A stretch of DNA of 64,000 bases from Candidatus Roizmanbacteria bacterium (GTDB taxonomy: Bacteria; Patescibacteriota; Microgenomatia; UBA1406), in contig JANLHL010000016.1 of NCBI GenBank assembly GCA_024654535.1, positions 160,626 through 224,625 of the forward strand, read 5' to 3'. Below are positions 5,208-54,476 of this stretch, piece after piece. Below the pieces are notes generated by a model. It had not been told where the DNA came from, did not search any database, and was given only the letters and a program-made list of their open reading frames with translations. Within the stretch, counting starts at the first letter, position 1. Every line of letters starts with the position of its first letter. The position numbers and the translations under genes were made by a program.

Positions 5208-5330
5208 TTTTTGACATTTGAACTTTGACATTCAATTGGCATTTGACATTGAGATTTGGTCATTTATTTGTCATTAGAACTTTGTCATTTGACATTAATT
5301 GGATATTTGATATTGGATATTGGATATTTT
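5208..5330 (+). repeat. Heptamer array, forward orientation (TTTGACA/TTTGAAC/TTGGATA words)
   Basis: Reads tttgaca tttgaac tttgaca ttcaa ttggca tttgaca ttgaga tttggtca tttat ttgtca ttagaac tttgtca tttgaca ttaa ttggata tttgata ttggata ttggata. Same vocabulary as the nine other intergenic sites. Confidence 0.9.
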
Positions 5331-5347
5331 CCTATATACTTGTATCC

Positions 5348-6604
5348 ATGAAGCTCCGCTTTAAAAACTTCCTGGGTAACAAGTTTGTAAAAGGGGGACT
5401 CGTGTTTACTCTCGCAAATATATTCGTCAGTCTATTCAACTACCTTTTCAATTCTCTCTCTGCAAAAGCGCTTGGCCCACAGGGGTATGGCGAAATTGCT
5501 GCTTTTTTTGCCTATCTCGTAATAGTTTCTGTTCCACTGGGAATAATTTCAACACTTATTATTCAAAAGTTGGGAAGTGTCGGAGAAAATAGGGCTGTAT
5601 ACGCTCTGTCTTTTGACTTGTGGTTTCGATCGCGCATCCGTAAATGGTGGTTTCTATTCTTACTACCTATACTGGCTATCCCACTAGTGCCTCGCATTAC
5701 TAACCTCAGCCTTGTCGCGTCTATTGGCTTATCGAGTATCATAAGCATTACCATGCTCACCGGTGTGTACATAGCGCTCATACAAGGACTCCAACTCTTT
5801 ACCACTTTTAGCTTGCTGTCGGTGTCTCAAACGCTTATAAAACTTGTTGGGGCACTCTTGGTGTTTTGGAAACTTGGTAATTTGTCGACAATCATATTTT
5901 TTATTGTCGTTGGTAATGTCACGACGTACGTACTCGCGCGCATGCGTATTACTCGTTTACAAAGCGCGTTTAGTGCATTTAAACACATAACATTTGACAA
6001 TCGCATAGTACATATACTACAGAGGAAGCAAACCATAATAGCCGTATGTTCACTCATCAGCATAACCTTACTGAGCAATGCAGATATAATTTTTGTGAAG
6101 AAATTCTTTGATCCTGTCGATGCAGGGCTCTACGGTGTATGGAGTTTGTTTGCAAAAATAATTATGTATATTGCTGGTCCGCTTATATCGGTTCTCTTTA
6201 TCTTTTTTGCAGATAGTCAGGAAAAACGCATGCATGGAAAACTTCTCGTTGCAGTCACGGCGATTTTTTTGCTCGGCACGCTATGTTCATTTGCCGTCTA
6301 CCAACTATATGGAAATATTCTTCTTAGTCTTATCGCAAGTAAGGCATACAGCCCGGTACTGACGTATTTACCCATGGCTGCACTGTTTGGCGGATTGTAT
6401 GGGCTTATTACAATCTATAACAACTATTTCATAGCCCAAAATAACAAAGGGGCTCTCATAAATACATTCACTGTACCACTCTATATAGCTTCACTCTTCT
6501 TATTCGGCCACACGTTAGAAAAGGTAATTTGGGTAAATATTTACTATGGCATGTTTGTTGTCTCAATAACATGGGTATGGTTGCTTGCGTCATCAAAAGA
6601 ATAA
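5348..6604 (+). CDS. Oligosaccharide/polysaccharide flippase (Wzx-like, MOP superfamily)
   Basis: About 12 TM helices, N-terminus MKLRFKNFLGNKFVKGGLVFTLANIF typical of Wzx/RfbX proteins. Track start 5225 (TTG) translates the heptamer array, so ATG 5348 is preferred. TATACT 5335-5340 lies 7 nt upstream. Confidence 0.7.
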   Translation: MKLRFKNFLGNKFVKGGLVFTLANIFVSLFNYLFNSLSAKALGPQGYGEIAAFFAYLVIVSVPLGIISTLIIQKLGSVGENRAVYALSFDLWFRSRIRKWWFLFLLPILAIPLVPRITNLSLVASIGLSSIISITMLTGVYIALIQGLQLFTTFSLLSVSQTLIKLVGALLVFWKLGNLSTIIFFIVVGNVTTYVLARMRITRLQSAFSAFKHITFDNRIVHILQRKQTIIAVCSLISITLLSNADIIFVKKFFDPVDAGLYGVWSLFAKIIMYIAGPLISVLFIFFADSQEKRMHGKLLVAVTAIFLLGTLCSFAVYQLYGNILLSLIASKAYSPVLTYLPMAALFGGLYGLITIYNNYFIAQNNKGALINTFTVPLYIASLFLFGHTLEKVIWVNIYYGMFVVSITWVWLLASSKE

Positions 6605-6634
6605 ATGTGTTTTGCATAGTGTATACTTTCACTT

Positions 6635-7375
6635 ATGAAGCAAAGTGGACATTTTTTAAGCCTCATCATTCCCGTCTATAAACAAGAGAGTACTGTTGTC
6701 AAAAATGTTCAGGAAATTCAAAAAGTACTCGACACTATCCGCTACGACTACGAAGTACTTATTGTAATAGATGGGCTAGTCGATCAATCACACGAACTGT
6801 TAAAAAAAGCTCATATACCAAAAACAAGGATCATTTACTTTAAAAAAAATCAGGGAAAAGCTTTTGCAATACGCACCGGTATGGAAAAAGCAAAAGGCGA
6901 CTACATAATGTTTATGGATTCGGGTATGGAGATAGACCCAAATGGCATTTCTATGTTACTTGAGCACATGGAGTGGTACAACGCAGACATTATAGTGGGG
7001 AGCAAGCGTCATCAGGCGTCGCAAGTGCAGTATTCCAGACAGCGCAAAGTATTAAGTTACGGCTATTACTATATTGTGAAACTCATGTTTGGTATAAAGG
7101 TTACCGATACGCAGGCTGGTATAAAAATATTTAAGAAAAATGTACTCAAAAAAATACTTCCCAAGCTTGTTGAAAAAAAATTCGTCGGCGATCTTGAAAT
7201 GCTCGTTGCTGCAAAAAGCTTAGGGTTCGACAGAATCTACGAAGCACCTATTAAGCTCAGCTATGCCATTGGCCCGCTCTCGAGCGCAGCAACGGTACAG
7301 TCTATAGCAGGAATTCTTCTCGATACGCTTGCTATTTGGTACAGGGTGTTTATTCTGAAGTGGTATACCAAATAA
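6635..7375 (+). CDS. GT2 glycosyltransferase (polyprenol-phosphate sugar transferase-like)
   Basis: LSLIIPVYKQESTV, IVIDGLVDQS and FMDSGMEIDP (DxD-type) motifs of GT-A/GT2. Confidence 0.8.
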   Translation: MKQSGHFLSLIIPVYKQESTVVKNVQEIQKVLDTIRYDYEVLIVIDGLVDQSHELLKKAHIPKTRIIYFKKNQGKAFAIRTGMEKAKGDYIMFMDSGMEIDPNGISMLLEHMEWYNADIIVGSKRHQASQVQYSRQRKVLSYGYYYIVKLMFGIKVTDTQAGIKIFKKNVLKKILPKLVEKKFVGDLEMLVAAKSLGFDRIYEAPIKLSYAIGPLSSAATVQSIAGILLDTLAIWYRVFILKWYTK

Positions 7376-7407
7376 AAGCACACATATCCTTATTCTAATA
7401 ACCGCTA

Positions 7408-7416
7408 TGCTATACT
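7408..7416 (+). promoter_or_regulatory. Extended -10 box TGcTATACT, 6 nt before ATG 7423
   Basis: tgctatact at 7408-7416, spacer tttcac, then ATG. No SD. Confidence 0.45.
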
Positions 7417-10395: not shown

Positions 10396-11125
10396 ACAAA
10401 CAATCAACGAAAACTACTGGGACAAATATAATAAAGGCTACGGCAAAACGTGGAATGTAAAAACGCGCGCGTTGCTTTCAAAAAAAGAACTCGGATTTAT
10501 ACAAAAATATATTCCTGATTTACAACGTGCAACCATTCTAGATGTTGGGGTAGGTACCGGAAGAATTCTGAACTTCCTAATAAATAAATCAAAAAAAGAT
10601 GCATCCATATACGGCATTGATGTATCACAAAAAATGGTTGACTATTGCAAAACTATATTTGGGAAACAAAAAAAAATAAAAGAGATCAAACGCATTTCTC
10701 TCTCGAAGAAAAAAGGCTACATATTCAACGGAGTGAAATTCAGTCTTATCTCCGCAATCAGAGTATTGAAATATAATGCAGACTGGAAACAGTACATACA
10801 TACATTTAAAAATAATCTTGATAGAAATGGAGTTATGATTTTTACCATGCCAAATCGCGAGTCTCTCAATAAATTTGCACACTACACAATCCCATTTTAT
10901 AAATCAGATTATAAAGAAATACAGTCGGTTCTCGATACGAATAATTTAGAACTACTCGATATACAAACGTTTACACGGATACCCGATATTTTTTATGAAC
11001 TACCGCATCTGAAAAACACAAATTGGTATGCAACGCTTATAAATAGCACTGAGAGACTACTCAAGAGTATATTTGGCGCTCATAGATTCGGACGAATATT
11101 ATTTATCGCAGCCAGAAGAAAATGA
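10388..11125 (+). CDS. Class I SAM-dependent methyltransferase
   Basis: Motif I ILDVGVGTGRIL and overall Methyltransf_11/23-like layout. Confidence 0.8.
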   Translation: MTKQTINENYWDKYNKGYGKTWNVKTRALLSKKELGFIQKYIPDLQRATILDVGVGTGRILNFLINKSKKDASIYGIDVSQKMVDYCKTIFGKQKKIKEIKRISLSKKKGYIFNGVKFSLISAIRVLKYNADWKQYIHTFKNNLDRNGVMIFTMPNRESLNKFAHYTIPFYKSDYKEIQSVLDTNNLELLDIQTFTRIPDIFYELPHLKNTNWYATLINSTERLLKSIFGAHRFGRILFIAARRK

Positions 11126-12126
11126 AAATACATATTTCAATAATCATACCGGTTCGCGAAATAAATGATTATGTTACAAATGAAAATTTGCCTGCATTTG
11201 TACATCAAACGTACAAGAATTTCGAAGTTATAGTACTACCAAACGAATTGAGAAAAGAAGACAAAGCCCTTCTTACGAAGTATCCATTTTTGCGCATCAT
11301 CCCAACCGGTAACATAACGCGCCCTGCACTAAAAAGAGATATTGGGGCAAAGCACGCAAACGGAACTATTTTGGCCTTTATCGATGACGACGCTTATCCG
11401 AAAAGCGACTGGCTCAAACATGCTGAAACATTATTTACTAAAAAAGATGTTTCATGTGTTTGTGGGCCAGGGGTATTGCCAAAAAATACAAACATATGGG
11501 AAAAAGTATTTGATGAAATTCTTGTGAGCCCAGTAGGGAGTGGGGGATACGGGTATCGCTTTACCCCAAAAGAGACACGCTTTGTCGATGATTACCCTTC
11601 GATGAATTTTCTCATAACCAAAAAATTATTTACCCGTATCGGCGGATTTAATAATAATTTTTGGCCAGGAGAAGATAGTAAACTCTGTAACGATATTGTC
11701 TATAAAGAACACGAAAAAATTCTCTACTCTCCCAACGTTATCATCTATCACCACCGCAGAAATAGCCTCGTACCGTACTTACGCCAGCATATGCAATATG
11801 GATATCATAGAGGTGCGTTCATTGCTGTTGGCGATAAAAATTCACTTAAGATTAATTACTTTTTGCCACTATTTTTTCTATTATACTGCCTTTCTTTACT
11901 CGTACTTTTACCCTTTTTTACCCCACTATATTTTGCGCCACTTATTGCATATCTATTGTTAAGTGTTGTAATAGCAGTGCGTGCATTTTTAAAATACAAA
12001 AATATTTTTTATATAGTAGCTATTCCGAGTGTCTTATTTCTTACTCACATGCTTTACGGTATGTCTTTTCTGAAAGGTTTAGTTGTAGGTTTTATAAAAA
12101 GGGATAAAATATATGGGAATGAATAA
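11122..12126 (+). CDS. GT2 glycosyltransferase with C-terminal TM region
   Basis: ISIIIPVREINDYV, FIDDDAYP and WPGEDSKL motifs. ATGA overlap with the upstream gene. Confidence 0.8.
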   Translation: MKIHISIIIPVREINDYVTNENLPAFVHQTYKNFEVIVLPNELRKEDKALLTKYPFLRIIPTGNITRPALKRDIGAKHANGTILAFIDDDAYPKSDWLKHAETLFTKKDVSCVCGPGVLPKNTNIWEKVFDEILVSPVGSGGYGYRFTPKETRFVDDYPSMNFLITKKLFTRIGGFNNNFWPGEDSKLCNDIVYKEHEKILYSPNVIIYHHRRNSLVPYLRQHMQYGYHRGAFIAVGDKNSLKINYFLPLFFLLYCLSLLVLLPFFTPLYFAPLIAYLLLSVVIAVRAFLKYKNIFYIVAIPSVLFLTHMLYGMSFLKGLVVGFIKRDKIYGNE

Positions 12127-12200
12127 TATCCAATATCAAATATCCAATATCCAATAAAGTTCAAATGTCAAATGTCAAAATCAGATACTTGTCATTTGCA
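12125..12200 (-). repeat. Heptamer array, reverse orientation (TATCCAA/TGTCAAA words)
   Basis: aatatccaatatcaaatatccaatatccaataaagttcaaatgtcaaatgtcaaaatcag is the reverse complement of the vocabulary at 5208-5330. Confidence 0.9.
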
Positions 12201-12214
12201 TATAGGCTATAAGT

Positions 12215-12478
12215 TTGATTGAATATACGCTCATGGATAAAGCAACACTATATAAAAAGGGTGACATGGAGATTCGGGTACTGAGAAGCACCTGTATCGG
12301 AGCAGCAACATGTGTGGTGTACGCACCCAGCACGTTTGATCTTGATGATGACAGCATAGCGATAGTTAAAAATGGGCAGTGGGATAGCTTAGAAAAGATT
12401 ATTGCAGCTGCGCAGTCGTGCCCCGTTGTCGCAATCGAGGTATATGTGAAGGGTAAAAAAGTGTACCCCAAAGGGTAA
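12215..12478 (+). CDS. Small single-cluster ferredoxin
   Basis: MEIRVLRSTCIGAATCVVYAPSTFDLDDD...AAAQSCPVVAIEV: C-x2-A-x2-C ... C-P pattern of mono-cluster 3Fe/4Fe ferredoxins. Real start uncertain (TTG 12215, ATG 12233 or ATG 12266). Confidence 0.7.
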   Translation: MIEYTLMDKATLYKKGDMEIRVLRSTCIGAATCVVYAPSTFDLDDDSIAIVKNGQWDSLEKIIAAAQSCPVVAIEVYVKGKKVYPKG

Positions 12479-12573
12479 TATCCAAGTTCAAATATCCAAC
12501 TCGCCTGCCGGCGAGGCAGGTAAATGTCAAAGTTCAAATGTCCAGTTCTGATATTTGATATTGGGTATTGGAT
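12477..12573. repeat. Compact palindromic heptamer element (reverse words - GC hairpin - reverse words - forward words)
   Basis: aatatccaagttcaaatatccaa | ctcgcctgccggcgaggcagg (12500-12520) | taaatgtcaaagttcaaatgtccag | ttctgatatttgatattgggtattggat. The GC core CGCCTGCC...GGCGAGGCAGGTAAA is shared with 37175-37220 and 44464-44529. Confidence 0.85.
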
Positions 12574-15237: not shown

Positions 15238-15390
15238 GTAGTATTATACAAAATAATGACAAATAAATATATTATAGGGTATTATAAGATATCATTTCCC
15301 TCCACAAATGCATTTTTTATATATTCTCATTGTATTATTGCACGCAAACTCGATTGTAACGAAGTGAAGTACATGATAAGCTGAAAAAAG

Positions 15391-16896
15391 ATGCAAAATA
15401 AGTATAAAAGCCTGATTGTATACGCACTCTTAACCGGTATAGTCATTGCCGGATTCATCTTTCGCCTTCAGGGTATTATTGACAACCATTCATTTTGGTC
15501 AGATGAAGCATATGTTGCAACATTAGGTAGAGACATTGTTACAAGCAAAAGGTCTATTCCAGAAGCTATCAAATTACTAAATTATCAACCTCTACACGTG
15601 CTTACAACAGCACTATCTATGAAACTATTCGGATTTAATGAATTTTCAGCACGACTCCCAGTTGTTTTATTTGGAACGCTTGGTATTATTGCAGCATTTT
15701 TATTGGCAAAAAAATTATCCAATGCTTATGGGGGACTATTAGCAGCATTTTTATACGCAATTTCTCAATTGAACTTAGCAAATAGTACTCAAGCGAAACC
15801 AAACACAGCAATTCAGACTATATTCATATTTAATATTTATTTGCTATCGCTTTTGTATGAAAATAAAAAAAATGTATATTTACATACCATCATAATTGCA
15901 CTCTCTTGTATTGCTACTCTGTTTCATTTTATAGGTATTTTAGTATTTATCCCATATTTTATATTTATAATTACAAATATAAATTACAAAAATATTTTTG
16001 TAGACTCAAAAAAAATTATATATTTCTTACTATTTTCCGTATTTTTTATGCTTGTTTTTTTCTTATCTTCAGGAAAAAGTAGGTTTGAAAATCTTTTTAA
16101 TCCAACAAATATCAAGGACTCCGTCTTTTTGCACAATATATCTTTACTAAGAGAACTTTTGTGGAAAAATTATTCATTTATTACTTTGCCAGCACTATTT
16201 GGATTAATACTTTCGTATAAAAGAAAGAGGGTACTAACTGCAACCATTATCACTTATGTCGTGATACTAATATTTTTTTGGGTGTTCTACGCGTTCGGAA
16301 ATATACGCTATGTCTTGCCCATAATAGCTCTTATGTTTATGTATTTCGCTGTATTTTGGAGTTATATTGGCGAAAAAATTTTGATGAATAAAAGTTGGGC
16401 AGTATGCTTACTGGTCGCAATTGCTATATATTTGGGAGGCAATAAGATAGTACGGATTCCGCAGAACTACTACAGTCCAAATGAAGATCTTTATGGAGAC
16501 GTTCAGTTTGCCGATTACAAAAACACATATAAATATATAGGGTATAAATATCCAAATCTTTCTAAAGTTGCAATATTTAATGACTGGCATGAAGCTCAGT
16601 ATTGGTACTTACCTAACAAGCTTCCAAATGCGTACTTTATTAAAAACGAGAAAAATAACTCAGAACACTGGATAGATAAACAGCCTGTCTATAATACATT
16701 GAGTCACTTTTTGAATGCGATGTCAAAATATGATAGTGGCATTCTTATTGTTGAAGATTGGGATAGTTTACTACCAAATGATATAAAAAACTATGCAAAA
16801 TCAAATCTCAAACTAGAATTTAGATCTAGCGCAATATCACAGGCTGTAAATGATCCTTGGCCAGTAGAAATATATAGTTGGCATTCAGAGAAATAA
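15391..16896 (+). CDS. GT-C membrane glycosyltransferase (ArnT/PMT, GT39-like)
   Basis: Polytopic. First-loop motif HSFWSDEAYVATLGRDI (DE). Very AT-rich coding. Confidence 0.7.
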   Translation: MQNKYKSLIVYALLTGIVIAGFIFRLQGIIDNHSFWSDEAYVATLGRDIVTSKRSIPEAIKLLNYQPLHVLTTALSMKLFGFNEFSARLPVVLFGTLGIIAAFLLAKKLSNAYGGLLAAFLYAISQLNLANSTQAKPNTAIQTIFIFNIYLLSLLYENKKNVYLHTIIIALSCIATLFHFIGILVFIPYFIFIITNINYKNIFVDSKKIIYFLLFSVFFMLVFFLSSGKSRFENLFNPTNIKDSVFLHNISLLRELLWKNYSFITLPALFGLILSYKRKRVLTATIITYVVILIFFWVFYAFGNIRYVLPIIALMFMYFAVFWSYIGEKILMNKSWAVCLLVAIAIYLGGNKIVRIPQNYYSPNEDLYGDVQFADYKNTYKYIGYKYPNLSKVAIFNDWHEAQYWYLPNKLPNAYFIKNEKNNSEHWIDKQPVYNTLSHFLNAMSKYDSGILIVEDWDSLLPNDIKNYAKSNLKLEFRSSAISQAVNDPWPVEIYSWHSEK

Positions 16897-16980
16897 GTTG
16901 GAAAGAATGAAAAACGCAAATAATATATAATTATATTCCATTAATATCTATCAGTATTTATTTTATACACACAATACAAA

Positions 16981-17706
16981 ATGAGCATCAAAGCATATGC
17001 TTCTCATCTATTCAGACAGTGGGCAAAGGACGATCTAGAATGTGTATACAGCTATCTAGAACCAAATAAAAATATTAAACTACTAGATCTTGGTTGCGCG
17101 GAGGGTACACTTACAAAAAAATTTGCTGACTATTGCAATGCGGAAGAAGTAGTTGGTATTGATGGTGTGAAAAGTAGAAATTTAAAAGGAATAAATATAA
17201 TACAGGCCAACCTGAATGATGAATTTCCTTTACCCAAAAACCATTTTGATGTAGTAATAAGTCATTATAGTTTCGAACACTTATATAACCCTGGATTGTT
17301 TATAAGTGAAATATATCGTGTGTTAAAAAAGGGTGGATATTGTATTATTGCTACTGATAATCTTTCATGCTGGCCAAACATACTTGCTCTAATTATGGGT
17401 TGGCAACCTTTTTCAACCACAGACGGTGTAGGATCAAATGCAATTGGCAATCCTTTCGCAATACACACACGCAGACATAAAGGGGAAAAAGCATTTGAAA
17501 AAAAATATCTAAAACAAGGGATTTTCGAACACAACAAAGTAATGGCTTACCAAATGTTAATAGATTCCTTTACCTATTTTCATTTTAATATCGAACGCAT
17601 AAAAGGCGTTGGCTATTTCCCACTTTATGGTTATTTTGCAAAACTAATGAACAAAATTGACATTCGGCATAGCCATTTCCTTATTATAAAGGCAAGAAAA
17701 ACTTGA
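16981..17706 (+). CDS. Class I SAM-dependent methyltransferase
   Basis: Motif I LLDLGCAEGTLT and post-I/II motifs (VVISHYSFEHL, LKKGGYCII). Confidence 0.8.
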   Translation: MSIKAYASHLFRQWAKDDLECVYSYLEPNKNIKLLDLGCAEGTLTKKFADYCNAEEVVGIDGVKSRNLKGINIIQANLNDEFPLPKNHFDVVISHYSFEHLYNPGLFISEIYRVLKKGGYCIIATDNLSCWPNILALIMGWQPFSTTDGVGSNAIGNPFAIHTRRHKGEKAFEKKYLKQGIFEHNKVMAYQMLIDSFTYFHFNIERIKGVGYFPLYGYFAKLMNKIDIRHSHFLIIKARKT

Positions 17707-17783
17707 ATAACAAGCAGATTAAATAGAAAAAACTCAGTTAAGTTTACAGTAATTATTTCGTAGGTTGCTGATCGATAAAGTTA

Positions 17784-18806: not shown

Positions 18807-18847
18807 AATAAGTATTATACTGGGTACGTATTTAAAATTGGTACAAT

Positions 18848-19798: not shown

Positions 19799-19815
19799 AC
19801 ATTGTTTTTATTTTT

Positions 19816-19845
19816 TTGATTTGCTATTAATAATTAATATATAAT
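19816..19845 (+). promoter_or_regulatory. Promoter TTGATT-18-TATAAT, 6 nt before ATG 19852
   Basis: ttgatt 19816-19821, 18-nt spacer, tataat 19840-19845, spacer aacact, then ATG. Confidence 0.5.
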
Positions 19846-19851
19846 AACACT

Positions 19852-20961: not shown

Positions 20962-20970
20962 AGTCGTGAC

Positions 20971-21726: not shown

Positions 21727-22318
21727 TGATTACATAAAAACATACAGTAAGAATTACAATAAGAAGCGAATTCTTGACTTAGGTTGTGGTGAAGGATATT
21801 TCACTTCTCTATTTGGATTACGAAACAATGTCATTGGAATTGATTTGCAAAATATTGTTCCAAAAAAATATAAAAATTTTATATATCGTAAAGCAGACGT
21901 CACAAACTTGCCTTTTAAGTCAAGTTCCATGGATTTGGTAATTTCCTTCGACGTGATAGAGCATATTCAAAATGATAAAAAAATGCTTGATGAAGCATAT
22001 CGAGTATTAAAAAAAGGCGGCCACATCCTGTTTGGTACGCCTAATAGAAACAGATTAGCAAACACGATTCTCAAAATATTCGGAAAACCAAGATCCTATC
22101 CATGGCTTATCGGAGACGATAAAGTTCTGGGTAAAATGATACATGTCCGCGAATATGACTACAAAGAATTATCTAACATATTAAAATTAGTTGGATTTAA
22201 GAAAATAAATATAACACCATTCTGGTTTGGTTCTCCATTCTTTAAATATGGTTTTGTGAAGGTTTTTGAATTTAGTAAAAGATATTGTCAATACTATTTC
22301 TTTGAGGCAAGTAAATAA
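21701..22318 (+). CDS. Class I SAM-dependent methyltransferase
   Basis: Motif I ILDLGCGEGYFT, plus DLVISFDVIEHI and LKKGGHILF. Confidence 0.8.
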   Translation: MKTLYKACSDYIKTYSKNYNKKRILDLGCGEGYFTSLFGLRNNVIGIDLQNIVPKKYKNFIYRKADVTNLPFKSSSMDLVISFDVIEHIQNDKKMLDEAYRVLKKGGHILFGTPNRNRLANTILKIFGKPRSYPWLIGDDKVLGKMIHVREYDYKELSNILKLVGFKKINITPFWFGSPFFKYGFVKVFEFSKRYCQYYFFEASK

Positions 22319-41888: not shown

Positions 41889-43489
41889 GGTGTAGCAACT
41901 CTATACACGGTTACATCTCTATTGCTAAATACAGAGTGCAAAAATGAATAGTGCGGTAATGTCCCGAGCTTTTTTTCATCCGATCCATAGACAACATACT
42001 CTATGTTATTGTTCTTCAAAAATTCAAATGCCTTAGCCTTTGTTTCACTACCAGAATAAAACGAACTAACGAGTATAAACTTTTCATAAAATTGAGGCGT
42101 CTGAATTATGTGACCAAAATATACTTTTGAACCAGTAAATGGAGGTATATGGCTTGACGTTACATAGGCAGCTAACACATTCGCAGGAGTTTTTTTTGAA
42201 AGAAAAGCGTACATATCACGCGTTGTATTTGGCTGATAATACCAAACATTCTCCTCCGGAATTTCATCAACCCTACGCTGGTATACAGACAGCGTCGACA
42301 GTGGAACTAAAAACAACAAGAATATGGTGACAATAGTTCTCGACATTCCCCATGTCTTTTTTTGCGAATATATAAAAATAAGGACACTTACAACAATCGG
42401 GAAGAAAAGTCCTCGTAAAAAAAATCTATTAATACCTAATGGTGCGAAGTTCAAAGCAATACTCGTGAGTACCCATAGATTGAGAAAAATATACCTACTA
42501 TCTCGTAAAGCCTTTTTACTGAAAAGCTGGAGGATATACAAAACTCCAAGAATGCCATATCCGAATATAATATGAACTATGGTTACTTGACTCAACTGTT
42601 GTGTGGCAACAGACGCAAAGCCTGCATTTTTTAGCGACAGATAATAATAAATATCAACAACTCCCAATATTGCATAGCCAAATAAAAACAAAGCGACAGA
42701 TATTTTATCTTTTTTCTGCAATAATATAAATATAAACCCAATAATGCCTATGCTCAGTAGGTAGTACGGATAGAAAATCATAAGAAAAAAAGATGATAAT
42801 GCAAATAGAAATATACGTTTTCTGTTTGTTGTAAGCGACACAAACAGAGACACGAGCGAAGTAAGATATAGCATAGTGCCAATAGCCTCATGACCCCTTT
42901 GGATAGAACTATGAAAAGTAAAACTGGTTACAAACATATCGGCGGATCCAAATGCACCAGAAACTATCCAACCCATTCCTCCACCAAATAGTATGAGAAA
43001 AAAAGCGAGCAAACGTACCTTATACGATTGAATAAAATAACCAATCAGCCAGTATATTGCCATACACAGAAAAAAACCAGCTACAGTACTGACCACATGG
43101 AACAGTACGAATGGATCGACATGGGGAAAACTATACCCGACAAATGTATAAATTGGGTAGAGCAAAGCTCCTCTCGTAGCATCGACTGTATAAAAATTCT
43201 GCAACAATAAATGTCCCTGTTGCCCTGAGCGTATTGCCGTTACATAGACATTAATATCCCATGGATCAAAATACGCAGCCTTACCCATATACATAAATCC
43301 GGGGGGGGTTTTTAAATATGCTAAATAATCAGGAAAGTGTACATCGAACAACATAAAAAAGGCTATGAATAATGCAATGAATAAAGCGACGTAGCGCTTA
43401 TGTTTTACGATTCCCAACCATGCGGATGATCTTTGTACCATAGGGTTAATGAATGAATACTTTGTTGAAGAGATCGTTTCGGACTCCAA
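41885..43489 (-). CDS. Polytopic membrane protein (GT-C-like, unassigned)
   Basis: 534-aa ORF with more than 10 hydrophobic helices and a C-terminal soluble domain. The track start overlaps the galE 3' end by 85 nt. Alternative ATG 43441 (MVQRSS...) overlaps it by 37 nt. Confidence 0.5.
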   Translation of the reverse strand: MESETISSTKYSFINPMVQRSSAWLGIVKHKRYVALFIALFIAFFMLFDVHFPDYLAYLKTPPGFMYMGKAAYFDPWDINVYVTAIRSGQQGHLLLQNFYTVDATRGALLYPIYTFVGYSFPHVDPFVLFHVVSTVAGFFLCMAIYWLIGYFIQSYKVRLLAFFLILFGGGMGWIVSGAFGSADMFVTSFTFHSSIQRGHEAIGTMLYLTSLVSLFVSLTTNRKRIFLFALSSFFLMIFYPYYLLSIGIIGFIFILLQKKDKISVALFLFGYAILGVVDIYYYLSLKNAGFASVATQQLSQVTIVHIIFGYGILGVLYILQLFSKKALRDSRYIFLNLWVLTSIALNFAPLGINRFFLRGLFFPIVVSVLIFIYSQKKTWGMSRTIVTIFLLFLVPLSTLSVYQRRVDEIPEENVWYYQPNTTRDMYAFLSKKTPANVLAAYVTSSHIPPFTGSKVYFGHIIQTPQFYEKFILVSSFYSGSETKAKAFEFLKNNNIEYVVYGSDEKKLGTLPHYSFLHSVFSNRDVTVYRVATP

Positions 43490-44412
43490 TTAAGAACCGT
43501 ATGAGCTCGTGTTATATCCGCAACCATTTTGGCGTATTCACCTTCACGTGCAGTTGTTTTTTTTAGATCGAAATGAACATTTGTCTCCTTTTGTACAGCA
43601 TTGACTATTTCAAGTACTGAGTTTCCCGTGCCCGTACCAAGATTAATTGTTACCGGCTTTCCATCGTGCATCAAATATTCAAGAGCTTGTATGTGTGCCT
43701 CGTTGAGATCAACGACATTTATATAATCACGGATAGGTGTTTTGTCTATCGTATCTACTGTAGGACATGTTAAATAAAATGGCTCTATTCCCAGTGCACC
43801 ACGGACTGCATTTTGCACCAGTAAGACTGATGGTTTTTTTGAATCACCAATGACTCCATCGTCACTCGCGCCACACACATTAAAATAACGCAAAACAACA
43901 TAAGTCAATCCTTTTGTTTGTGCATACCAATCAAGAATTTTTTCAACCATTTTTTTCGACTCTCCATAGGGGTTGGTTGGATTCGTTGGATGCATTTCAT
44001 TTATCGGCAATTTCTGAGCCTCGCCATAAACAGCACAGGTCGACGAAAAAACAATTTTGCGTATATTGTGCTTGTTCAACTGCTCGATAAAGTTGAGCGA
44101 TCCATAAGTATTGTTGTAAAAATACTTATGGGGATTTTTCATAGATTCATCGACCAAACACGATGCAGCATAATGAATGACTACATCTATTCCGCTCTCA
44201 CGTCTTAATATTGAAGATAAATCGTCGTGCAAATCTGCCTCATAGTATGAAAGTTTGCTTTTCCCAAATTTCTTCTGCATGAATTCAAGAGGAGCTTTAT
44301 ACCCTGTTGTGAAATTATCCACTCCAACCACCCTATATCCCTTTTCAAGAAGTAAATAGGTAGCCACAGATCCAATATATCCACCGGCCCCAGTAACAAG
44401 AATTGTGCTCAT
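43405..44412 (-). CDS. galE: UDP-glucose 4-epimerase
   Basis: ILVTGAGGYIGSV, catalytic YGESK and the overall GalE layout (NVCGA, PIRDYI-V-DL). TGcTATACT (rc 44419-44427) 6 nt before ATG. Confidence 0.88.
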   Translation of the reverse strand: MSTILVTGAGGYIGSVATYLLLEKGYRVVGVDNFTTGYKAPLEFMQKKFGKSKLSYYEADLHDDLSSILRRESGIDVVIHYAASCLVDESMKNPHKYFYNNTYGSLNFIEQLNKHNIRKIVFSSTCAVYGEAQKLPINEMHPTNPTNPYGESKKMVEKILDWYAQTKGLTYVVLRYFNVCGASDDGVIGDSKKPSVLLVQNAVRGALGIEPFYLTCPTVDTIDKTPIRDYINVVDLNEAHIQALEYLMHDGKPVTINLGTGTGNSVLEIVNAVQKETNVHFDLKKTTAREGEYAKMVADITRAHTVLNWSPKRSLQQSIHSLTLWYKDHPHGWES

Positions 44413-44436
44413 TTTACTAGTATAGCATGTAAGAAA

Positions 44437-44726
44437 ATCAAATATCCAATATCAAATGTCAAACCCGCCTGCCCGCTTCGACGCGCCTACGTCGACGCAG
44501 GCGCGAGGCGAGCCGGCGAGGCAGGTAAAGCTCCAAATCCCAACGCCAAAAACGATCGTCATTACGAGGTGGTAATTTAGTTTGTCGTTGCAAGGAGCGA
44601 AGTGACGAAGCAATCTTGTCAAAAGACAGGGGATTGCTTCGCTACGCTCGCAATGACAGGGTTATTGGACATTGGAGCTTTGTCATTTATTGGGTATTTG
44701 AACTTGGATATTGGATATTGGTTATT
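44437..44726. repeat. Composite palindromic element B (homologue of element A)
   Basis: Same order of parts as 37119-37398. The GC hairpin (44464-44525) is about 20 nt longer and contains the near-perfect palindrome gcgcctacgtcgacgcaggcgc (44483-44504). Core stem tcgtcattacgag / ctcgcaatgaca, with gaagcaatc / gattgcttc (9 bp). Forward words at 44660-44726. Confidence 0.9.
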
Positions 44727-47220: not shown

Positions 47221-48558
47221 TCAATGCGAAATATACATAACTATCACGCCACGATAATCTTGGTATTGCGTAACGGCAAACTCTTTCATGGTATTAATCC
47301 CATAGATATCAGTGGTATAGGGGAAAACGATGAACGTCTTTGGTGCAGTTCGCTTCTGAAGTGTACGGATATCTTTCACCTGAATATCTGGCCTGTAATA
47401 GGTCAGTGCATCCATAGATGAAGGAACGCCATAGACAACCGTATGCGCTGGGATAGCCTGAGCAGCACTTTTCCAGTCTTCACGATGAAAGCGTGGAAAA
47501 CATACGTACAGCCCTGAAAAAAATATAAATCCAAGCACAATGCCGTAGGCACTTTTCTTACCAGATATCCCACTTGCAAGAGAAATACTTATTGGAATGA
47601 GAAGGTATATAAATCGAAAATAAGACAGAAGTGGAGAAAAAAATGAAAATAGTATACCCAACAATAGTGGGATAGTACTTAATACCAGCAATTTCTTCTG
47701 TACTACAAATCCTTTTACTACCATAAACCATACTATTACTCCCCATATGCCACTTAGTAACCAATAGAACCACTTCGGTTCAAAACTTATCCTGCCCACG
47801 ATAAACTTAAGCGGAATAAGTAGGATGTTTTTAATTGTCACAGTCCCCAACACACTGCTCCATGTGGAGACACTTGAAAGTGCAGTTCGGGAATGTATAA
47901 ATTGGGAAATAGTAAGTGGTGAAAGCAACAGTACCATTATTACAGTGCACAATGACACAACAAACAGCGCTCTATATCTTCTACGTAATAGAAGAAGTAA
48001 CAGTATGCCAGACATATAAAAGATAGATCCGTAAAACACTGCAAAACTCGCCGATAATAACAGGCCAAGATATATTTTTGTTTTCAGCTGTGGCATTCGC
48101 TCATCTGCAAAGAAATAATACGTTGCCATCGATAGCAAACATACTGCAAACATATACATGCGTGCTTCCTGACTGTAATAGACAATTAATGGGTTGAACA
48201 AAAATAACGCAGATGCCAATGGTGCCTTTTTTTTATCGACAACATACAGCGCTGTTTTATATATAAAATACCCAGCGACGAGAGAAAAAACAACCGAAGG
48301 TAATCGAAGCGCAATTTCAGAATAACCCGCAATTGTCGTCCATGTTTTCATAAACAAATAATACAATGGCGGATGAAAATCAAACGGTGCAAACTGTCGA
48401 ACGAGCTCAACCAATGTATACTCTTTTACGACTCGAGCAGTTGTCGCCTCGTCCAGCCATACTGACTGATTAAGTCCGATAAGTCGAATAAAAAACGCGC
48501 TGAAGAAAAGAAGTTGGATACGGTATTTTGAAATCAATAAGATAAGGTACTGTTTCAT
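47221..48558 (-). CDS. GT-C membrane glycosyltransferase (GT39, ArnT/PMT_2-like)
   Basis: IGLNQSVWLDEATTARVV (DE loop), polytopic. ATG 48558 preferred, because track start 48624 translates the GTCATTGCGA repeat remnant (MLAMTGG...). Confidence 0.75.
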   Translation of the reverse strand: MKQYLILLISKYRIQLLFFSAFFIRLIGLNQSVWLDEATTARVVKEYTLVELVRQFAPFDFHPPLYYLFMKTWTTIAGYSEIALRLPSVVFSLVAGYFIYKTALYVVDKKKAPLASALFLFNPLIVYYSQEARMYMFAVCLLSMATYYFFADERMPQLKTKIYLGLLLSASFAVFYGSIFYMSGILLLLLLRRRYRALFVVSLCTVIMVLLLSPLTISQFIHSRTALSSVSTWSSVLGTVTIKNILLIPLKFIVGRISFEPKWFYWLLSGIWGVIVWFMVVKGFVVQKKLLVLSTIPLLLGILFSFFSPLLSYFRFIYLLIPISISLASGISGKKSAYGIVLGFIFFSGLYVCFPRFHREDWKSAAQAIPAHTVVYGVPSSMDALTYYRPDIQVKDIRTLQKRTAPKTFIVFPYTTDIYGINTMKEFAVTQYQDYRGVIVMYISH

Positions 48559-48586
48559 TGCTCTATTGTTAAAATCAATTGCTCTT

Positions 48587-48639
48587 TTGTCATTGCGATC
48601 ATTCCCTCCTGTCATTGCGAGCACAAGCGAAGCAATCTC
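48587..48639. repeat. Remnant of the GTCATTGCGAG / GAAGCAATC repeat (half element, no complementary arm)
   Basis: gtcattgcga at 48589-48598 and again at 48611-48620, followed by gcacaagcgaagcaatctc. No heptamer words and no inverted partner nearby. Confidence 0.7.
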
Positions 48640-48640
48640 A

Positions 48641-49771
48641 TCACTTTTTACTTTTTATTTCCGATGTTACTATTGGAGTTTCGACTACTTTGTTGATAAA
48701 AGAGTGCACACCGGACCAAGTATTCATCCCGCTTCTCGGAACGAGAATATACTGCCCGTCATCGGAATATGTATCCTTCAATACATTATCGAGTGATAAA
48801 ACTACTCTTTGTGTCGAATAATCTCTCATAGAAAAAAATTCTTTACCAAACTTCTGCATTTCTGTTAACGCTATATCAGTTTTAACGTGGTTACTTACTT
48901 CATCCAATAAAGGCAACAATTTTGGTACAGAACCGATAGCTAATGCTTTCTTTGCAACCGCTTCCATGAAGAGTTGTTGTCGTGCCGACCTTCCAAAATC
49001 GCTCCCATCTTGCAACGAATGACGTGAGCGTACAAATTTTAAAGCAGTTTCACCATTCATCGTTGTCAAACCTTTATCGAAGTGTAAATGTTCATATCGA
49101 CAGGGAAAAGCCAACTCGGGCGATTCTGTTGCTATTTTTTCTAGTTCAGGCAAATCCTCTGGCTGTTTACCGCATAGATCCGTCTCTTTACCATCAACCG
49201 GATACTCATAATCATCAAAAGTCACGGCAACGTTGACGTCAATACCGCCAAGTAGGTCCACAACTTTAGTAAAACCATCAAAATCTATTGCTACATATCT
49301 ATCAATAGAGAATCCTGTCACACTAGATAAGATTCGTTTCACGAGTTGGGCACCTGGCTGTTCAACTTTTGGAGCAAAAGCAACGTCGGGATAATTCTTT
49401 GTGTATAAACCCATTTGATAGACCGAGTTTATTTTAGAATAATAAGGCTTCTTCGATTTCGTCGGTACCTTTACCCACAGATCGCGGGGTATGGAAATAA
49501 GTTGAGCACTTTTTTCAAGCGTATTAACATGAACAATCATTATAGAGTCGGTGAGAAACGTCCCTTCGTGAACCCCACCGCCATACCCAAGTAACGCAAT
49601 GCTGTATTCTGTTTTTTTTAGGGGCACTTGAGTAACGGTATTTGACGTATATACTTTTGAGTAAATTTTCACGACTCGCGAGAAGACAAAATAAACCAAC
49701 ATACCAATACAAATGGCAAGTACTATAGCCGTTTTTGATAGTAACCTATTTCCTGTCCTTGACGTATACAT
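48641..49771 (-). CDS. LytR-CpsA-Psr (LCP) family cell-envelope glycopolymer transferase
   Basis: N-terminal TM anchor then LLGYGGGVHEGTFLTDSIMIVHVNTLEKSAQLISIPRDLWVKVP (LCP core motif). ATG 49771 preferred over 49828. Confidence 0.85.
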   Translation of the reverse strand: MYTSRTGNRLLSKTAIVLAICIGMLVYFVFSRVVKIYSKVYTSNTVTQVPLKKTEYSIALLGYGGGVHEGTFLTDSIMIVHVNTLEKSAQLISIPRDLWVKVPTKSKKPYYSKINSVYQMGLYTKNYPDVAFAPKVEQPGAQLVKRILSSVTGFSIDRYVAIDFDGFTKVVDLLGGIDVNVAVTFDDYEYPVDGKETDLCGKQPEDLPELEKIATESPELAFPCRYEHLHFDKGLTTMNGETALKFVRSRHSLQDGSDFGRSARQQLFMEAVAKKALAIGSVPKLLPLLDEVSNHVKTDIALTEMQKFGKEFFSMRDYSTQRVVLSLDNVLKDTYSDDGQYILVPRSGMNTWSGVHSFINKVVETPIVTSEIKSKK

Positions 49772-50108
49772 TGAGTATTTTATCGAGCTTACCACTAAAG
49801 GCTCGCTCCAAATCGACACGCATAACATTTGCCAGGGTCATAACCGCAAGTAAAACATCGGCAAACTCCTCATACATATTGAGCTTGCTGAATGCATTCA
49901 ATTTTGATTTCCTTTGTAACGAAAGCGTAGCCAATATATCGTTTGATAATTCTCCGACCTCTTCTGAAAGTTTCACCGTTTTAACTAAGATATCTTTTTC
50001 TCGTTTCGTTAGCGTTGAAAAAGTAATACGCATATCTTTTTCTTTACTTTTCAATACGGTTTGCAATTCTCTCAGACTATATCCGCGTAAGGATTTTTCT
50101 TCAGCCAT
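49746..50108 (-). CDS. MazG-like nucleotide pyrophosphohydrolase (small all-alpha NTP-PPase)
   Basis: 120 aa. LSEEVGELSNDIL ... EEFADVLLAVMTLANVMRVDLE is the EExxE...ExxD pattern of the MazG family. Confidence 0.7.
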   Translation of the reverse strand: MAEEKSLRGYSLRELQTVLKSKEKDMRITFSTLTKREKDILVKTVKLSEEVGELSNDILATLSLQRKSKLNAFSKLNMYEEFADVLLAVMTLANVMRVDLERAFSGKLDKILNVYVKDRK

Positions 50109-53291: not shown

Positions 53292-53306
53292 ATATAAGTT
53301 GCATAT

Positions 53307-53382
53307 TGAGCGAGAATATCTATTTTGAGCATATGTCGTGGGTCCCTTTGGGTGACGACGCGAAAAATAGATATCGAGCTCA
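53307..53382 (-). other. Long intercistronic hairpin between two co-directional genes
   Basis: atatctatttt (53316-53326) pairs perfectly with aaaatagatat (53364-53374). The stem is extended imperfectly by tgagcgag / cgagctca. Inner small stem gtcgt (53335-53339) / acgac (53355-53359). No U-tract. Confidence 0.5.
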
Positions 53383-53399
53383 AAGTTACAATACTAAAA

Positions 53400-54305
53400 C
53401 TACTTACTCTGTTTTTTTGCATATATCTTCATAAAATACCAACTGATTCCAAAAACCACAATATCACGAATAAGCGTCAAGACCCTTTGTACGAGTGATA
53501 GTGAAAATCCTAGTATAAACGCTTTTTCTATATTTTCCAAAAAAATGCCGAGTAAATATTCGCGTATACCCAAACCCGACGGCGCTGGTAAAAATAGAAA
53601 ACCACCAATCCAACTTATGACATAGCTTGCGCTTACGTACAAAAATTGACCGATAGTAAAGTGAACAGTATTATAAGCATAGAGAAGCAACGCAAAAGAA
53701 AAACCGGTGACAACCCAGAATGCTAGATTGTAGAAAGCTAGACGTACAAAAGATGAAATTGAATAGACATAGAAAAATGGGTAGCGACGCAATATATAAA
53801 ACGAAAGAACGCCACCAATAACAACTACCAAACATGCCCATACATACGAAAGAGGAGTGGGCAGAAAAATTGCGACGAGCGGTGCAGCCATAAATGGACC
53901 AAAGAAAATAAGACCAAACACTATACGCCAAAACATCTCGACAAAAATAAGCTTTGTCGATCGCAGTAGTGAAGCTTGGCTATTTTTATTTAACATAACC
54001 ACTGCGTCCAACTGATTCCATATGCCACCAGGTACATATTTCAAGAGTCCGTTGTGTGCCAAAATATACAATTGAGTAGGAGAATCTATTACAAGTTTGA
54101 GGCTTTTTACAAGAACCTCTCTGCTCTTATATTGAAACCAAAAGGACGGAAATAGCAAAAAAAGTGATAGGCCAAGCAACATTGGATTCTTTACGTTAAA
54201 AAAGCTGACGATACTATTTTTATTTGCATACAAAAAGTATGCTATAAAAGCCCACGTTACAATAAAAAAAACCGACTGGGCATATTTTAATACGCTCTTA
54301 AGCAT
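53400..54305 (-). CDS. Membrane protein with lysyl-PG-synthase-TM / flippase-like domain (UPF0104-type)
   Basis: About 8 TM helices. FLPAPSGLGIREYLLGIFL resembles the conserved P-G-G-x-G-x-x-E motif of that family. ATG 54305 preferred, because track start 54434 translates the array. TATACT (rc 54312-54317) 6 nt upstream. Confidence 0.55.
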   Translation of the reverse strand: MLKSVLKYAQSVFFIVTWAFIAYFLYANKNSIVSFFNVKNPMLLGLSLFLLFPSFWFQYKSREVLVKSLKLVIDSPTQLYILAHNGLLKYVPGGIWNQLDAVVMLNKNSQASLLRSTKLIFVEMFWRIVFGLIFFGPFMAAPLVAIFLPTPLSYVWACLVVVIGGVLSFYILRRYPFFYVYSISSFVRLAFYNLAFWVVTGFSFALLLYAYNTVHFTIGQFLYVSASYVISWIGGFLFLPAPSGLGIREYLLGIFLENIEKAFILGFSLSLVQRVLTLIRDIVVFGISWYFMKIYAKKQSK

Positions 54306-54342
54306 ATAAATAGTATACAGCCCTGGACCATATGGTGCAGGG

Positions 54343-54476
54343 AATATCCAATAGCAAATAAAGTCCCAATTCCCAATGTCAAAGGTCAAATGACAAATGT
54401 CAGAATTGGACATTGGAACTTTGTCATTTGTCATTCGTCATTCGTCATTCATTTGACATTGGATATTGGATATTGG
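54343..54476. repeat. Palindromic heptamer element C (reverse half then forward half, no core)
   Basis: 54343-54404 holds reverse words (aatatccaatagcaaataaagtcccaattcccaatgtcaaaggtcaaatgacaaatgtcag). 54405-54476 holds forward words, including the exact 7-nt register TTTGTCA TTTGTCA TTCGTCA TTCGTCA TTC (54421-54450) and TTGGATA TTGGATA. Confidence 0.9.

Follow-up and report, generated by a model that had tools for sequence, protein, structure and literature searches.

Heptanucleotide arrays between the genes of a Roizmanbacteria contig

We analysed a stretch of 64,000 nt from Candidatus Roizmanbacteria bacterium (Patescibacteria; assembly GCA_024654535.1, contig JANLHL010000016.1, positions 160,626-224,625 of the forward strand), which we will henceforth refer to as the window and to which plain coordinates relate. 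At ten sites in this window the DNA between genes is built from short words repeated head to tail, and one pair of such arrays encloses a gene for a small four-helix-bundle protein. A first-pass annotation had described the ten sites as arrays of mostly 7-nt words; the sequence was as described at each of its coordinates, and Tandem Repeats Finder gave period-7 arrays at all ten. Specifically, over 12 array segments (1023 bp, or 1.6% of the window) base identity was 0.62 at lag 7, falling to 0.53 at lag 14 and 0.38 at lag 21, compared with about 0.27 in the rest of the window. The dominant words were TTGGATA, TTTGACA, TTTGATA and TTTGTCA, with TTTGAAC also in the word set and TTGGTCA rare (3 + 6 occurrences). 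Searching with the degenerate word TT[TG]G[ATG][ATC][AC], we found 6 clusters of four or more words in forward and 5 in reverse orientation, while mononucleotide shuffles yielded 0.06 and 0.12 such clusters, respectively. Every array was intergenic, and of the 13 intergenic gaps that reach 140 nt, 9 held arrays; the low-GC island (15.3-30.4 kb) and the stretch at 55-64 kb were free of them, as had been noted before. Since independent NCBI, JGI, ENA and Logan assemblies carry the same arrays at orthologous positions, they are not an assembly artefact. They are confirmed as real, degenerate heptanucleotide simple-sequence repeats of period 7.

The orientation of the words was also ordered. In all five composite sites reverse words were followed by forward words, forming the large imperfect palindromes that the first-pass annotation had seen (arms of 39-59 nt, 71-77% complementary). 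Its statement that most gene blocks have a left-hand forward and a right-hand reverse array held for five of the seven blocks, the exceptions being 33178-34278 (forward on both sides) and 35761-37131 (reverse on both sides). Within the arrays, TTGGATA-type words were gene-proximal and TTTGACA/TTTGTCA words more distal.

Several familiar explanations were tried and set aside. A scan of 32-38 kb for sigma-70-like hexamer pairs found 13 against 16.1 expected, in line with the earlier remark that the TTGACA words are mostly not at -35 spacing, and a scan of the same region for intrinsic terminators found 8 against 5.1 expected, none of them at arrays; the array arms are AT-rich, without a T run after them. 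Classical promoter and terminator roles were rejected on these scans, which gave no enrichment and no sites at the arrays. We agree with the first-pass annotation that the arrays are not CRISPR (their units are 7 nt, contiguous and in both orientations, as opposed to 23-47-nt repeats with unique spacers), nor the end of an insertion sequence, and that they do not look like repetitive extragenic palindromic (REP) sequences or bacterial interspersed mosaic elements (BIME). An Rfam search at gathering thresholds returned nothing in the window, neither rRNA nor any other family. The arrays do not border the variable low-GC island either: synteny with the related contig L135 is already lost at about 31.2 kb, ahead of the arrays.

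Gene-carrying, gene-less and lone arrays

The four-helix-bundle gene (32589-32921, + strand) belongs to the Avd-like family of 23S-rRNA intervening-sequence proteins (PF05635, E = 3e-14; TIGR02436, E = 8.8e-20), and its product is 100% identical to the NCBI Candidatus Roizmanbacteria protein P0004. Upstream of it lies a reverse (5') arm (32427-32488, - strand), kept with point substitutions in the relative L119, and downstream a forward (3') arm (32926-33067, + strand), which begins 5 nt past the stop codon and pairs with the reverse arm in a fold of 32415-33180. The 28 nt at 32434-32461 are 89% complementary to 32924-32951, and these segments flank the gene. A GC-rich nested hairpin (GCCCGCC ... 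GGCGGG; 33071-33135) within the forward array is about 35 nt longer than in relatives of the L119 group. The neighbouring genes encode a PMT_2-like protein, an uncharacterised 366-aa protein and MurJ.

A second gene sits between inverted heptamer arms, with a cargo other than the four-helix-bundle gene. Here a reverse arm (12125-12200, - strand) starts at the stop codon of gene 11122-12126 and forms the outer left side of a palindrome around an 87-aa, single-cluster 4Fe-4S ferredoxin gene (12215-12478, + strand; Pfam Fer4_13, E = 1.6e-10). The right side is a composite (12477-12573; -37 kcal/mol) of reverse words, a basal GC hairpin CGCCTGCC-GGCGAGGCAGG (about 12500-12520) and forward words, and its 12550-12569 are 95% complementary to 12125-12144.

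Three composites hold no gene. The first (37119-37398; -102 kcal/mol) has five pieces: a reverse arm (37119-37174), a GC hairpin A (37175-37217) with a 21-nt hairpin (37182-37202) nested in its loop, further reverse words (37218-37243), a hairpin B (GTCATTGCGAG ... CTCGCAATGAC; 37246-37336) and a forward arm (37340-37398). The second (44437-44726; -127 kcal/mol) has four, namely a reverse arm (44437-44463), hairpin A (44464-44526), hairpin B (44558-44657) and a forward arm (44660-44726); its hairpin A carries a 21-nt insert, inside which a further 18-nt hairpin is nested. The third (54343-54476) is a plain reverse/forward palindrome with no insert, its 59-nt arms being 71% complementary and 7 nt apart, and it contains the exact 7-nt run TTTGTCA TTTGTCA TTCGTCA TTCGTCA, noted earlier at 54421-54450.

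Three sites are lone half-arrays. One, in forward orientation (TTTGACA/TTTGAAC ... TTGGATA; 5208-5330, + strand), lies in a divergent gap without a nearby partner arm and stops about 20 nt before the TATACT-N7-ATG start of a gene at 5348. Another forward half-array of about 14 words lies upstream of murJ (34306-34405, + strand), and a reverse one (35682-35760, - strand), of which a short version exists in the relative L120, lies over the murJ stop codon.

Compared with shuffled sequences, four composites folded more stably (z = -7.5 for 37119-37398, -7.7 for 44437-44726, -4.3 for 12477-12573 and -2.5 for 54343-54476). Lone arms folded no better than shuffles (z = -0.2 to -1.5; -0.8 at 5208-5330, -0.2 at 34306-34405 and -0.6 at 35682-35760), and the reverse arm at 32420-32495 was less structured than shuffles (z = +1.9).

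The GC hairpins show a nesting of up to three levels, with a basal CGCCTGCC-GGCGAGGCAGG stem, a 21-nt hairpin in its loop and an 18-nt hairpin inside that; such nesting was seen at 37175-37217, 44464-44526 and 12500-12520 and at 2750-2775 of the relative L121, one level being polymorphic between orthologous sites. The hairpin B motif recurs in part (GTCATTGCGA ... GTCATTGCGAGC ... CGAAGCAATC) at 48589-48640, at the junction of genes 47221-48624 and 48641-49828, without surrounding heptamer arrays. Because the hairpin motifs of the window (GTCATTGCGAG, CGAAGCAATC, GGCGAGGCAGG) were not clearly enriched in the loci from other phyla described below, we treat them as lineage-specific.

Heptamer arrays accompany four-helix-bundle genes in seven phyla

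PF05635/TIGR02436 is the family encoded in the intervening sequences (IVS) of 23S rRNA and is related to Avd of diversity-generating retroelements; the "IVS protein" PF05635 has been described as functionally uncharacterised (PMC11270868). We sampled about 20 homologues from seven phyla by the protein alone and found heptamer arrays directly beside the gene in all of them, with significantly inverted flanks in most. In a first set of loci, which were metagenomic or came from metagenome-assembled genomes (MAGs) of WOR-3, Moranbacteria, Thermoguttaceae and four other Patescibacteria contexts, every locus had inverted heptamer arms (complementarity z = 2.9-16.5 against shuffles). The arm words were lineage-specific (AATGACC/GGTCATT, TTTCTAA/TTAGAAA, AAATGAC/TTCGTCA, ATTTCAA/TTGAAAT and ATTTCCA/TGGAAAT), and TTGGTCA builds the arms of the WOR-3 cassette. 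Array density in this set was about 24 times higher next to the gene (14 arrays in 2.1 kb) than elsewhere in the same loci (11 in 38.8 kb). One contig (L153) carries two four-helix-bundle paralogues with different arm words.

The second set consisted of ten finished plasmids of cultured strains (Nostoc twice, Anabaena, Planktothrix, Pseudanabaena, Gloeocapsa, Chlorohelix, Chondrinema, Bernardetia and Treponema), taken from 30 matching records that were mostly from Nostoc. Heptamer arrays flanked the gene in all ten, and the inverted-arm z was at least 2.6 in eight, with a maximum of 23. This maximum was reached by the N. punctiforme arms, (AATTCGC)4|(GCGAATT)4, followed by those of N. flagelliforme, (AATTCAA)4|(TTTTGAA)4 (z = 20), and Planktothrix, AATCCCC/AATCGTA|CGATTTA (z = 18). 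Gloeocapsa, Chlorohelix, Treponema and Pseudanabaena gave z = 3.8-8.6 and Anabaena a weaker 2.6; in Chondrinema the inversion was not significant (z = 1.7), and in Bernardetia the arrays were direct, not inverted (0.5).

The gene read in the same direction as the neighbour upstream in about 17 of 19 loci and as the neighbour downstream in about 18 of 20, and it often lay between operon partners (resistance-nodulation-division adaptor|permease, ATP-binding cassette ATPase|permease, or, in two phyla, DUF1156|HEPN). The last of these positions, in a defence locus, was seen on plasmids of Chlorohelix and Gloeocapsa (L163 and L166), with a DUF1156 protein on one side of the gene and a Swt1-family HEPN protein on the other; there the gene may occupy a fixed, functional place and not have inserted at random. 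We also observed the gene in other defence loci, namely between cas2 and cas1, on the opposite strand, in Anabaena cylindrica pANACY.01 (L159), and just upstream of cas1 in Pseudanabaena (L162). Most contigs carrying homologues were very short, which suggests that the heptamer arms also break assemblies.

In Nostoc, arms and gene form one unit

The Nostoc plasmids provided the sharpest view of the ends of such a cassette. Three copies, from three strains and three unrelated contexts, align with each other only between the outer ends of (AATTCGC)4 and (GCGAATT)4, and their arms are 100% identical while the open reading frame (ORF) has diverged by about 12-15%. One copy splits an ORF which Nostoc C052 has in uninterrupted form, and plasmids of three other strains are without the whole stretch. 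At the level of sequence comparison, these alignments show that the arms in Nostoc belong to the gene and that both move as one discrete unit. Near-identical copies in Nostoc flagelliforme proved to be parts of larger duplications and uninformative on the cassette ends.

Gene-less derivatives with the same arms exist as well. Reverse/forward pairs of (AATTCGC)n were found in Nostoc MS1 (L174), where a GC hairpin is nested in an arm as in the window, and in UHCC 0302 (L175), and a copy in Trichormus variabilis has a different small ORF after the reverse arm. This set of gene-carrying, gene-less and other-ORF copies mirrors the set found in the window.

Arrays change in 7-nt steps among close relatives

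We compared the arrays with those of relatives at about 84% DNA identity. For the MurJ of the window (34422-35714), a protein of "Candidatus Roizmanbacteria bacterium CG10_big_fil_rev" reaches 88% identity, and two metagenomic proteins reach 90% and 74%. For the epimerase encoded at 43405-44412, a look-up gave no exact protein match. In the array at 32926-33067, an exact 7-nt indel separates L135 from L136, L137, L119 and L123, which are near-identical strains there, and larger, word-scale indels also separate close relatives. Upstream of murJ, the window array runs to about 14 words, a block of about 53 nt having been gained, against about four in the relatives with 90% MurJ identity and about three in the relative with 74%. 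The last TTGGATATTTA word of this array and the following TATA(A/C)TTACCYTATG are invariant down to the 74% relative.

At 37119-37398, the orthologous composite of L121 is 93% identical over about 350 nt and is without the 21-nt nested hairpin, and two adjacent words differ between them at four positions. The L119 group has no array at this gene boundary; in its place is an unrelated strong hairpin (-44 kcal/mol, z = -6.9), so that a stem is conserved at the boundary and its sequence is not. Since the candidate empty site is itself occupied by a different hairpin, the insertion boundaries of this composite are undefinable. L120 has a 39-nt spacer where the window has the four-helix-bundle unit of about 760 nt, and L121 is without the 366-aa gene that the window has between two forward arrays. 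Arms thus lengthen and shorten by 7-nt slippage and swap words between copies. In distant Microgenomates the period-7 arrays are made of other words.

Spread of the TTGGATA word across bacteria

To follow the word itself, we scanned one genome per species for exact matches to TTGGATATTGGATATTGG. At least 118 stretches matched, compared with about 17 expected by chance for an 18-mer in 596 Gb on both strands. The matches listed came from Anaerolineae, Saprospiraceae/Chitinophagales, Patescibacteria, Gemmatimonadaceae, Nostoc, a spirochaete, Verrucomicrobiota and others, several of them GC-rich genomes in which an AT-rich array is conspicuous. We found 360 period-7 arrays in the 807 kb of these loci, including the related words AATATCC, AATACCC, AATCTCC, AACATCC and AATGTCC, and neighbouring arrays of the same word in inverted orientation were ordered reverse-then-forward in 10 cases and forward-then-reverse in 4. 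A crude, ORF-based orientation test placed 59 of 142 matches "inside ORFs" and gave a weak bias, opposite to that of the window, for the remainder; the test is unreliable because arrays have TTG starts and no stop codons.

A number of these loci deserve separate mention. In GC-rich Anaerolineae (L019, L024, L039, L042 and L043) the reversed word stands directly upstream of a Shine-Dalgarno sequence and start codon, e.g., (AATATCC)n-AACAGGAGGAGAGAAATG, and the related words AATCTCC and AACCTCC resemble the anti-Shine-Dalgarno sequence. Ten of the matched stretches come from the genome of Candidatus Haliotispira prima (L009, L027, L048, L049, L061, L077, L095, L110, L118 and one more). On its chromosome (L049; 1984001-1992000) a family of paralogues of about 245 aa stands in tandem, each member with an (AATATCC)5 array about 130 nt upstream (e.g., 3650-3685 of the locus) and the arrays about 1.3 kb apart; these arrays possibly exert copy-number-dependent promoter control. 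A Chitinophagales MAG (L096, 140-1000) has a four-helix-bundle gene arranged as forward[gene]reverse, opposite to the window, and long, tandemly repeated GC-rich hairpins (GGTGCGGGTG ... CACCCGCACC) adjoin the arrays on both sides. Apart from these loci, two other Patescibacteria contigs carry a perfect (CCCTAAC)6 array (L151, 3911-3962) and a gene-less reverse/forward palindrome of the TTGGATA words of the window (L149, 1558-1660).

The arrays as proposed arms of intervening cassettes

We propose that the ten sites are heptanucleotide arrays of the class known as short tandemly repeated repetitive (STRR) sequences, acting as the inverted arms of small intervening cassettes that resemble both IVS and miniature inverted-repeat transposable elements (MITEs), an explanation to which we give an even chance. 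A complete cassette would consist of a reverse heptamer array, a cargo and a forward heptamer array, the usual cargo being a PF05635/TIGR02436 gene of about 110-125 aa. The window would hold one four-helix-bundle copy (32427-33067), one ferredoxin copy (12125-12573), three gene-less copies with nested GC hairpins or nothing at their centres (37119-37398, 44437-44726 and 54343-54476) and three lone arms (5208-5330, 34306-34405 and 35682-35760). The arms of a cassette would pair into a long stem in the transcript or in single-stranded DNA, thereby bringing the cassette ends close to each other, and such a stem might let the insert sit between the cistrons of co-oriented operons as a processing or termination boundary. 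The processing role is proposed by analogy, because the intervening sequences of rRNA are cut by RNase III in a stem of this kind. For movement, the most attractive candidate step is binding of the four-helix-bundle protein to its own heptamer arms.

Several observations weigh against this proposal. The four-helix-bundle gene is present at only one of the ten window sites, and the arms of the window are long, degenerate and only 71-77% complementary, unlike the perfect arms of Nostoc. The three lone arms have no structure of their own, and pairing therefore cannot be their role. Among the matches listed in the cross-phylum scan, the gene was found in 3 of the 118 array-selected loci by jackhmmer (in 2 by single-query tblastn), so most arrays are not in an intact cassette; the association is strong only from the gene to the arrays and not from the arrays to the gene. 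Other phyla often have the same word reversed, just upstream of start codons. In L154, the site that is "empty" of the second L153 gene retains a short array made of different words, and arrays could come first and simply draw insertions to themselves. As to mobility, no target-site duplication was found at the three Nostoc junctions (AAAA|...|CTTG, AAAG|...|GTTC and GAAT|...|GTTT), no transposase was seen, and the gene tables of the sampled loci contained no reverse transcriptase (window ORFs were scanned in part).

A broader and more speculative idea, which we think improbable though worth stating, is that the heptamer arrays of Cyanobacteria, Bacteroidota, Chloroflexota, Patescibacteria, Spirochaetota, Planctomycetota and others are largely arms and remnants of one ancient family of PF05635 intervening cassettes, whose protein recognises its own heptamers and whose insertions are tolerated through processing of the stem. 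The arrays would then be cis-acting arms together with their decayed or amplified remnants, and the family would have spread, perhaps by way of an RNA stage, into rRNA and transcribed DNA between genes, which fits the co-orientation with host operons and the link of Avd to reverse transcriptases. If true, this would give STRR and other heptamer repeats an origin and the "IVS protein" a function. Cassette arms may in any case help to explain the patchy occurrence of heptamer repeats across bacteria. The coupling of repeat and gene (about 20 loci in seven phyla), the Nostoc unit and the gene-less derivatives merge two loose ends into one testable question, which is experimentally accessible as Nostoc punctiforme is cultivable and carries a textbook copy, which in strain PCC 73102 lies on pNPUN02 (record 59135-59506). 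For the very compact genomes of Patescibacteria, the findings also show that about 1.6% of the window is dynamic repeat DNA marking the borders of transcription units.

Alternative explanations

An explanation without any cassette is neutral or selfish slippage, in which replication favours 7-nt units, palindromes arise by template switching and gene conversion, and harmless insertions happen to land in the resulting DNA; we regard it as unlikely, though worth serious weight. That replication slippage favours 7-nt units is Mrazek's proposal, as relayed in PMC4679880 and PMC4692102, and heptamers are over-represented in bacteria generally (PMC4679880, PMC4692102). The 7-nt indels, the rapid expansion, contraction, gain and loss of sites among close relatives, the quite different words of distant Microgenomates and the unstructured lone arms are all what slippage would produce, as is the lack of a four-helix-bundle gene in 115 of the 118 array-selected loci among the matches listed. 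Slippage leaves unexplained, however, why Nostoc arms are 100% identical while the gene between them diverges by 12-15%, why the homology of copies ends exactly at the outer arm ends, why arrays are enriched about 24-fold beside four-helix-bundle genes, how an AT-rich TTGGATA array comes to stand in GC-rich Anaerolineae and Gemmatimonadaceae genomes, and why the 18-mer TTGGATATTGGATATTGG occurs in at least 118 stretches when about 17 are expected by chance. The perfectly conserved arms and the sharp ends of homology conflict with it. The heptamers might instead be iterated DNA or RNA sites for an oligomeric protein, be it an Avd-like four-helix bundle or a nucleoid or regulatory protein, a putative role that we rate as improbable. 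Avd is a pentamer. Each cassette has its own word, even where two paralogues share a contig (L153), the Nostoc arms are perfectly conserved, and the final TTGGATATTTA word ahead of the murJ -10 box does not vary, even in the 74% relative, all of which a binding protein could account for; there is a precedent in the TTTTGAT heptads of the cholera-toxin ctxAB promoter, bound by ToxR and H-NS as described in a preprint (bioRxiv 10.1101/2021.05.14.444153). The very degenerate word mixture of the window speaks against such binding, as do the 7-bp spacing, which puts successive sites on different faces of duplex DNA, and the several-fold variation of array length between close relatives without obvious consequence.

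Two transcriptional readings fare worse. In one, which has a slim chance in our estimate, reverse-type words (AAUAUCC, AAUGUCA) would be outward-facing Rho-loading or insulator tracts that stop read-through at block borders, being C-containing, G-poor and unstructured, and the composites would be two borders back to back. On either strand, these words are the first that a transcript meets on its way out of a gene block. The forward-left/reverse-right rule in five of seven blocks agrees with this, and so do the reverse arm that is less structured than shuffles (32420-32495, z = +1.9), the reverse arrays that begin at or over stop codons and the lack of enrichment of canonical hairpin-plus-U terminators. 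Yet pyrimidine-C dinucleotides every 7 nt differ from the spacing usually quoted for Rho sites, a reverse arm ahead of the gene in four-helix-bundle cassettes would cause termination before the cargo, and the orientation is different in other phyla. In the other, to which we attach very little probability, TTGACA/TTGGAT words would supply a -35 or UP-element function to leaderless-type promoters, TATA(A/C)T-N6-7-ATG. Forward arrays do end 15-40 nt before TATACT/TATAAT-N6-7-ATG at 5348, 34422, 44412 (- strand) and 54305 (- strand), and a TTG every 7 nt puts a -35-like triplet in reach of almost any -10 box. The promoter scan of 32-38 kb nevertheless gave no excess of sigma-70-like hexamer pairs (13 against 16.1) and the invariant TTGGAT is only 8 nt from the murJ -10 box, and both results conflict with promoter modules; reverse arrays at gene 3' ends would moreover aim promoters back into genes, and the same promoters are present in L120 and the L119 group, where words are few or missing.

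Relation to known repeats and elements

Heptanucleotide repeats in cyanobacteria have reportedly been known since 1990 from the work of Mazel et al. The first-pass annotation had assigned the arrays to no named repeat class, which does not stand: tandem heptanucleotide intergenic repeats are an already described class that it had not recognised. By the account of Mrazek 2007 given in PMC4679880 and PMC4692102, heptamers are the most abundant long simple-sequence repeats (SSRs) in many bacteria, and they have been called uncharacterised (PMC4692102) and their distribution across phyla unexplained (PMC4679880). Examples include the STRR sequences of Calothrix and Nostoc, TAACTGA of Beggiatoaceae, Cyanobacteria and Bacteroidetes, and GGGAATC of Xanthomonas (PMC4679880, PMC4692102), for which inverted pairs have been noted (PMC4692102); further ones are the cyanobacterial STRR words CCCCAGT, TTGGTCA and CAACAGT and GGGGA(T/C)T of Nostoc. 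Like these long SSRs, the window arrays are tandem 7-nt repeats that are intergenic, dispersed and strain-variable in 7-nt steps, with inverted pairs in some cases and a patchy phyletic distribution. They differ from them in their Patescibacteria host, in a new set of strongly degenerate and ordered words (TTGGATA/TTTGACA/TTTGTCA/TTTGAAC) and in the systematic reverse-then-forward palindromic layout with nested GC hairpins, and they are not STRR sequences in the strict sense, since their dominant units are not CCCCAGT, TTGGTCA or CAACAGT and their host is not a heterocystous cyanobacterium.

A parallel in architecture is the 23S IVS of Coxiella and Leptospira. The Coxiella IVS encodes the PF05635 family, ends in inverted repeats that RNase III cuts and contains a variable number of GACAGAT heptamers before its ORF (PMC4990558), and IVS of the S23p/PF05635 type also occur in rRNA insertions of bacteria of the candidate phyla radiation (PMC11270868). 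The cassettes share with 23S IVS the protein family, the inverted-repeat stem around an optional ORF, the gene-less forms and the co-orientation with the host transcript. Unlike them, the window sites lie between protein-coding genes and not in helix 25 or 45 of 23S rRNA, and the cassette arms consist wholly of heptamer arrays and can be much longer. What we consider new is the occurrence of STRR-like repeats as arms of IVS-like cassettes outside rRNA; we found no such link to PF05635 in the literature searched.

Mobile palindromes offer other points of comparison. REP, BIME and REP doublet-forming hairpin (REPIN) elements are likewise intergenic imperfect palindromes between co-directional genes, with alternating short modules and many copies, and according to work cited in PMC3116915 they serve as targets for other insertions. 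The window sites, by contrast, are mosaics of 6-8-nt words with a 7-nt periodicity and a gene cargo, without a fixed unit of 20-40 nt, and no REP-associated tyrosine transposase was present among the 20 window proteins scanned against Pfam. The suggestion of a MITE-like mobile palindrome was the closest of three guesses in the first-pass annotation. Its mobile part agrees with the Nostoc inverted arms that travel with the gene and with the gene-less copies, and the sites share with MITEs inverted ends, gene-less derivatives, dispersed copies and presence/absence polymorphism between strains; they are not a classical MITE, because there is no target-site duplication at the Nostoc junctions, no fixed length (arm length varies) and no transposase as cargo. 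In 2008 Elhai et al. reportedly described the small dispersed repeats (SDR) of Nostoc, in which very small palindromic units are nested in each other. The 21-nt hairpin in the loop of hairpin A, with an 18-nt hairpin in its own loop, resembles these SDR, in different sequences and a different host.

Other features of the window

Many genes of the window start 6-7 nt past a TATAAT/TATACT box without a Shine-Dalgarno sequence, e.g., TATACTtgtatccATG and TATAATtaccctATG. Such starts lie at 5330-5350, 34395-34424, 33155-33180, 44412-44436 (- strand) and 54305-54330 (- strand), and at 6420-6445 of L119; at murJ, the TATA box and start are invariant in five relatives. Judged from these motifs, this suggests that leaderless transcripts are common in the Roizmanbacteria lineage of the window.

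The stretch at 15300-31200 is a low-GC (about 30%) island of tightly packed glycosyltransferase and polysaccharide genes, without arrays. Beyond the synteny break at about 31.2 kb, L135 carries different methyltransferase and glycosyltransferase genes, and the island is probably a swapped surface-glycan island.

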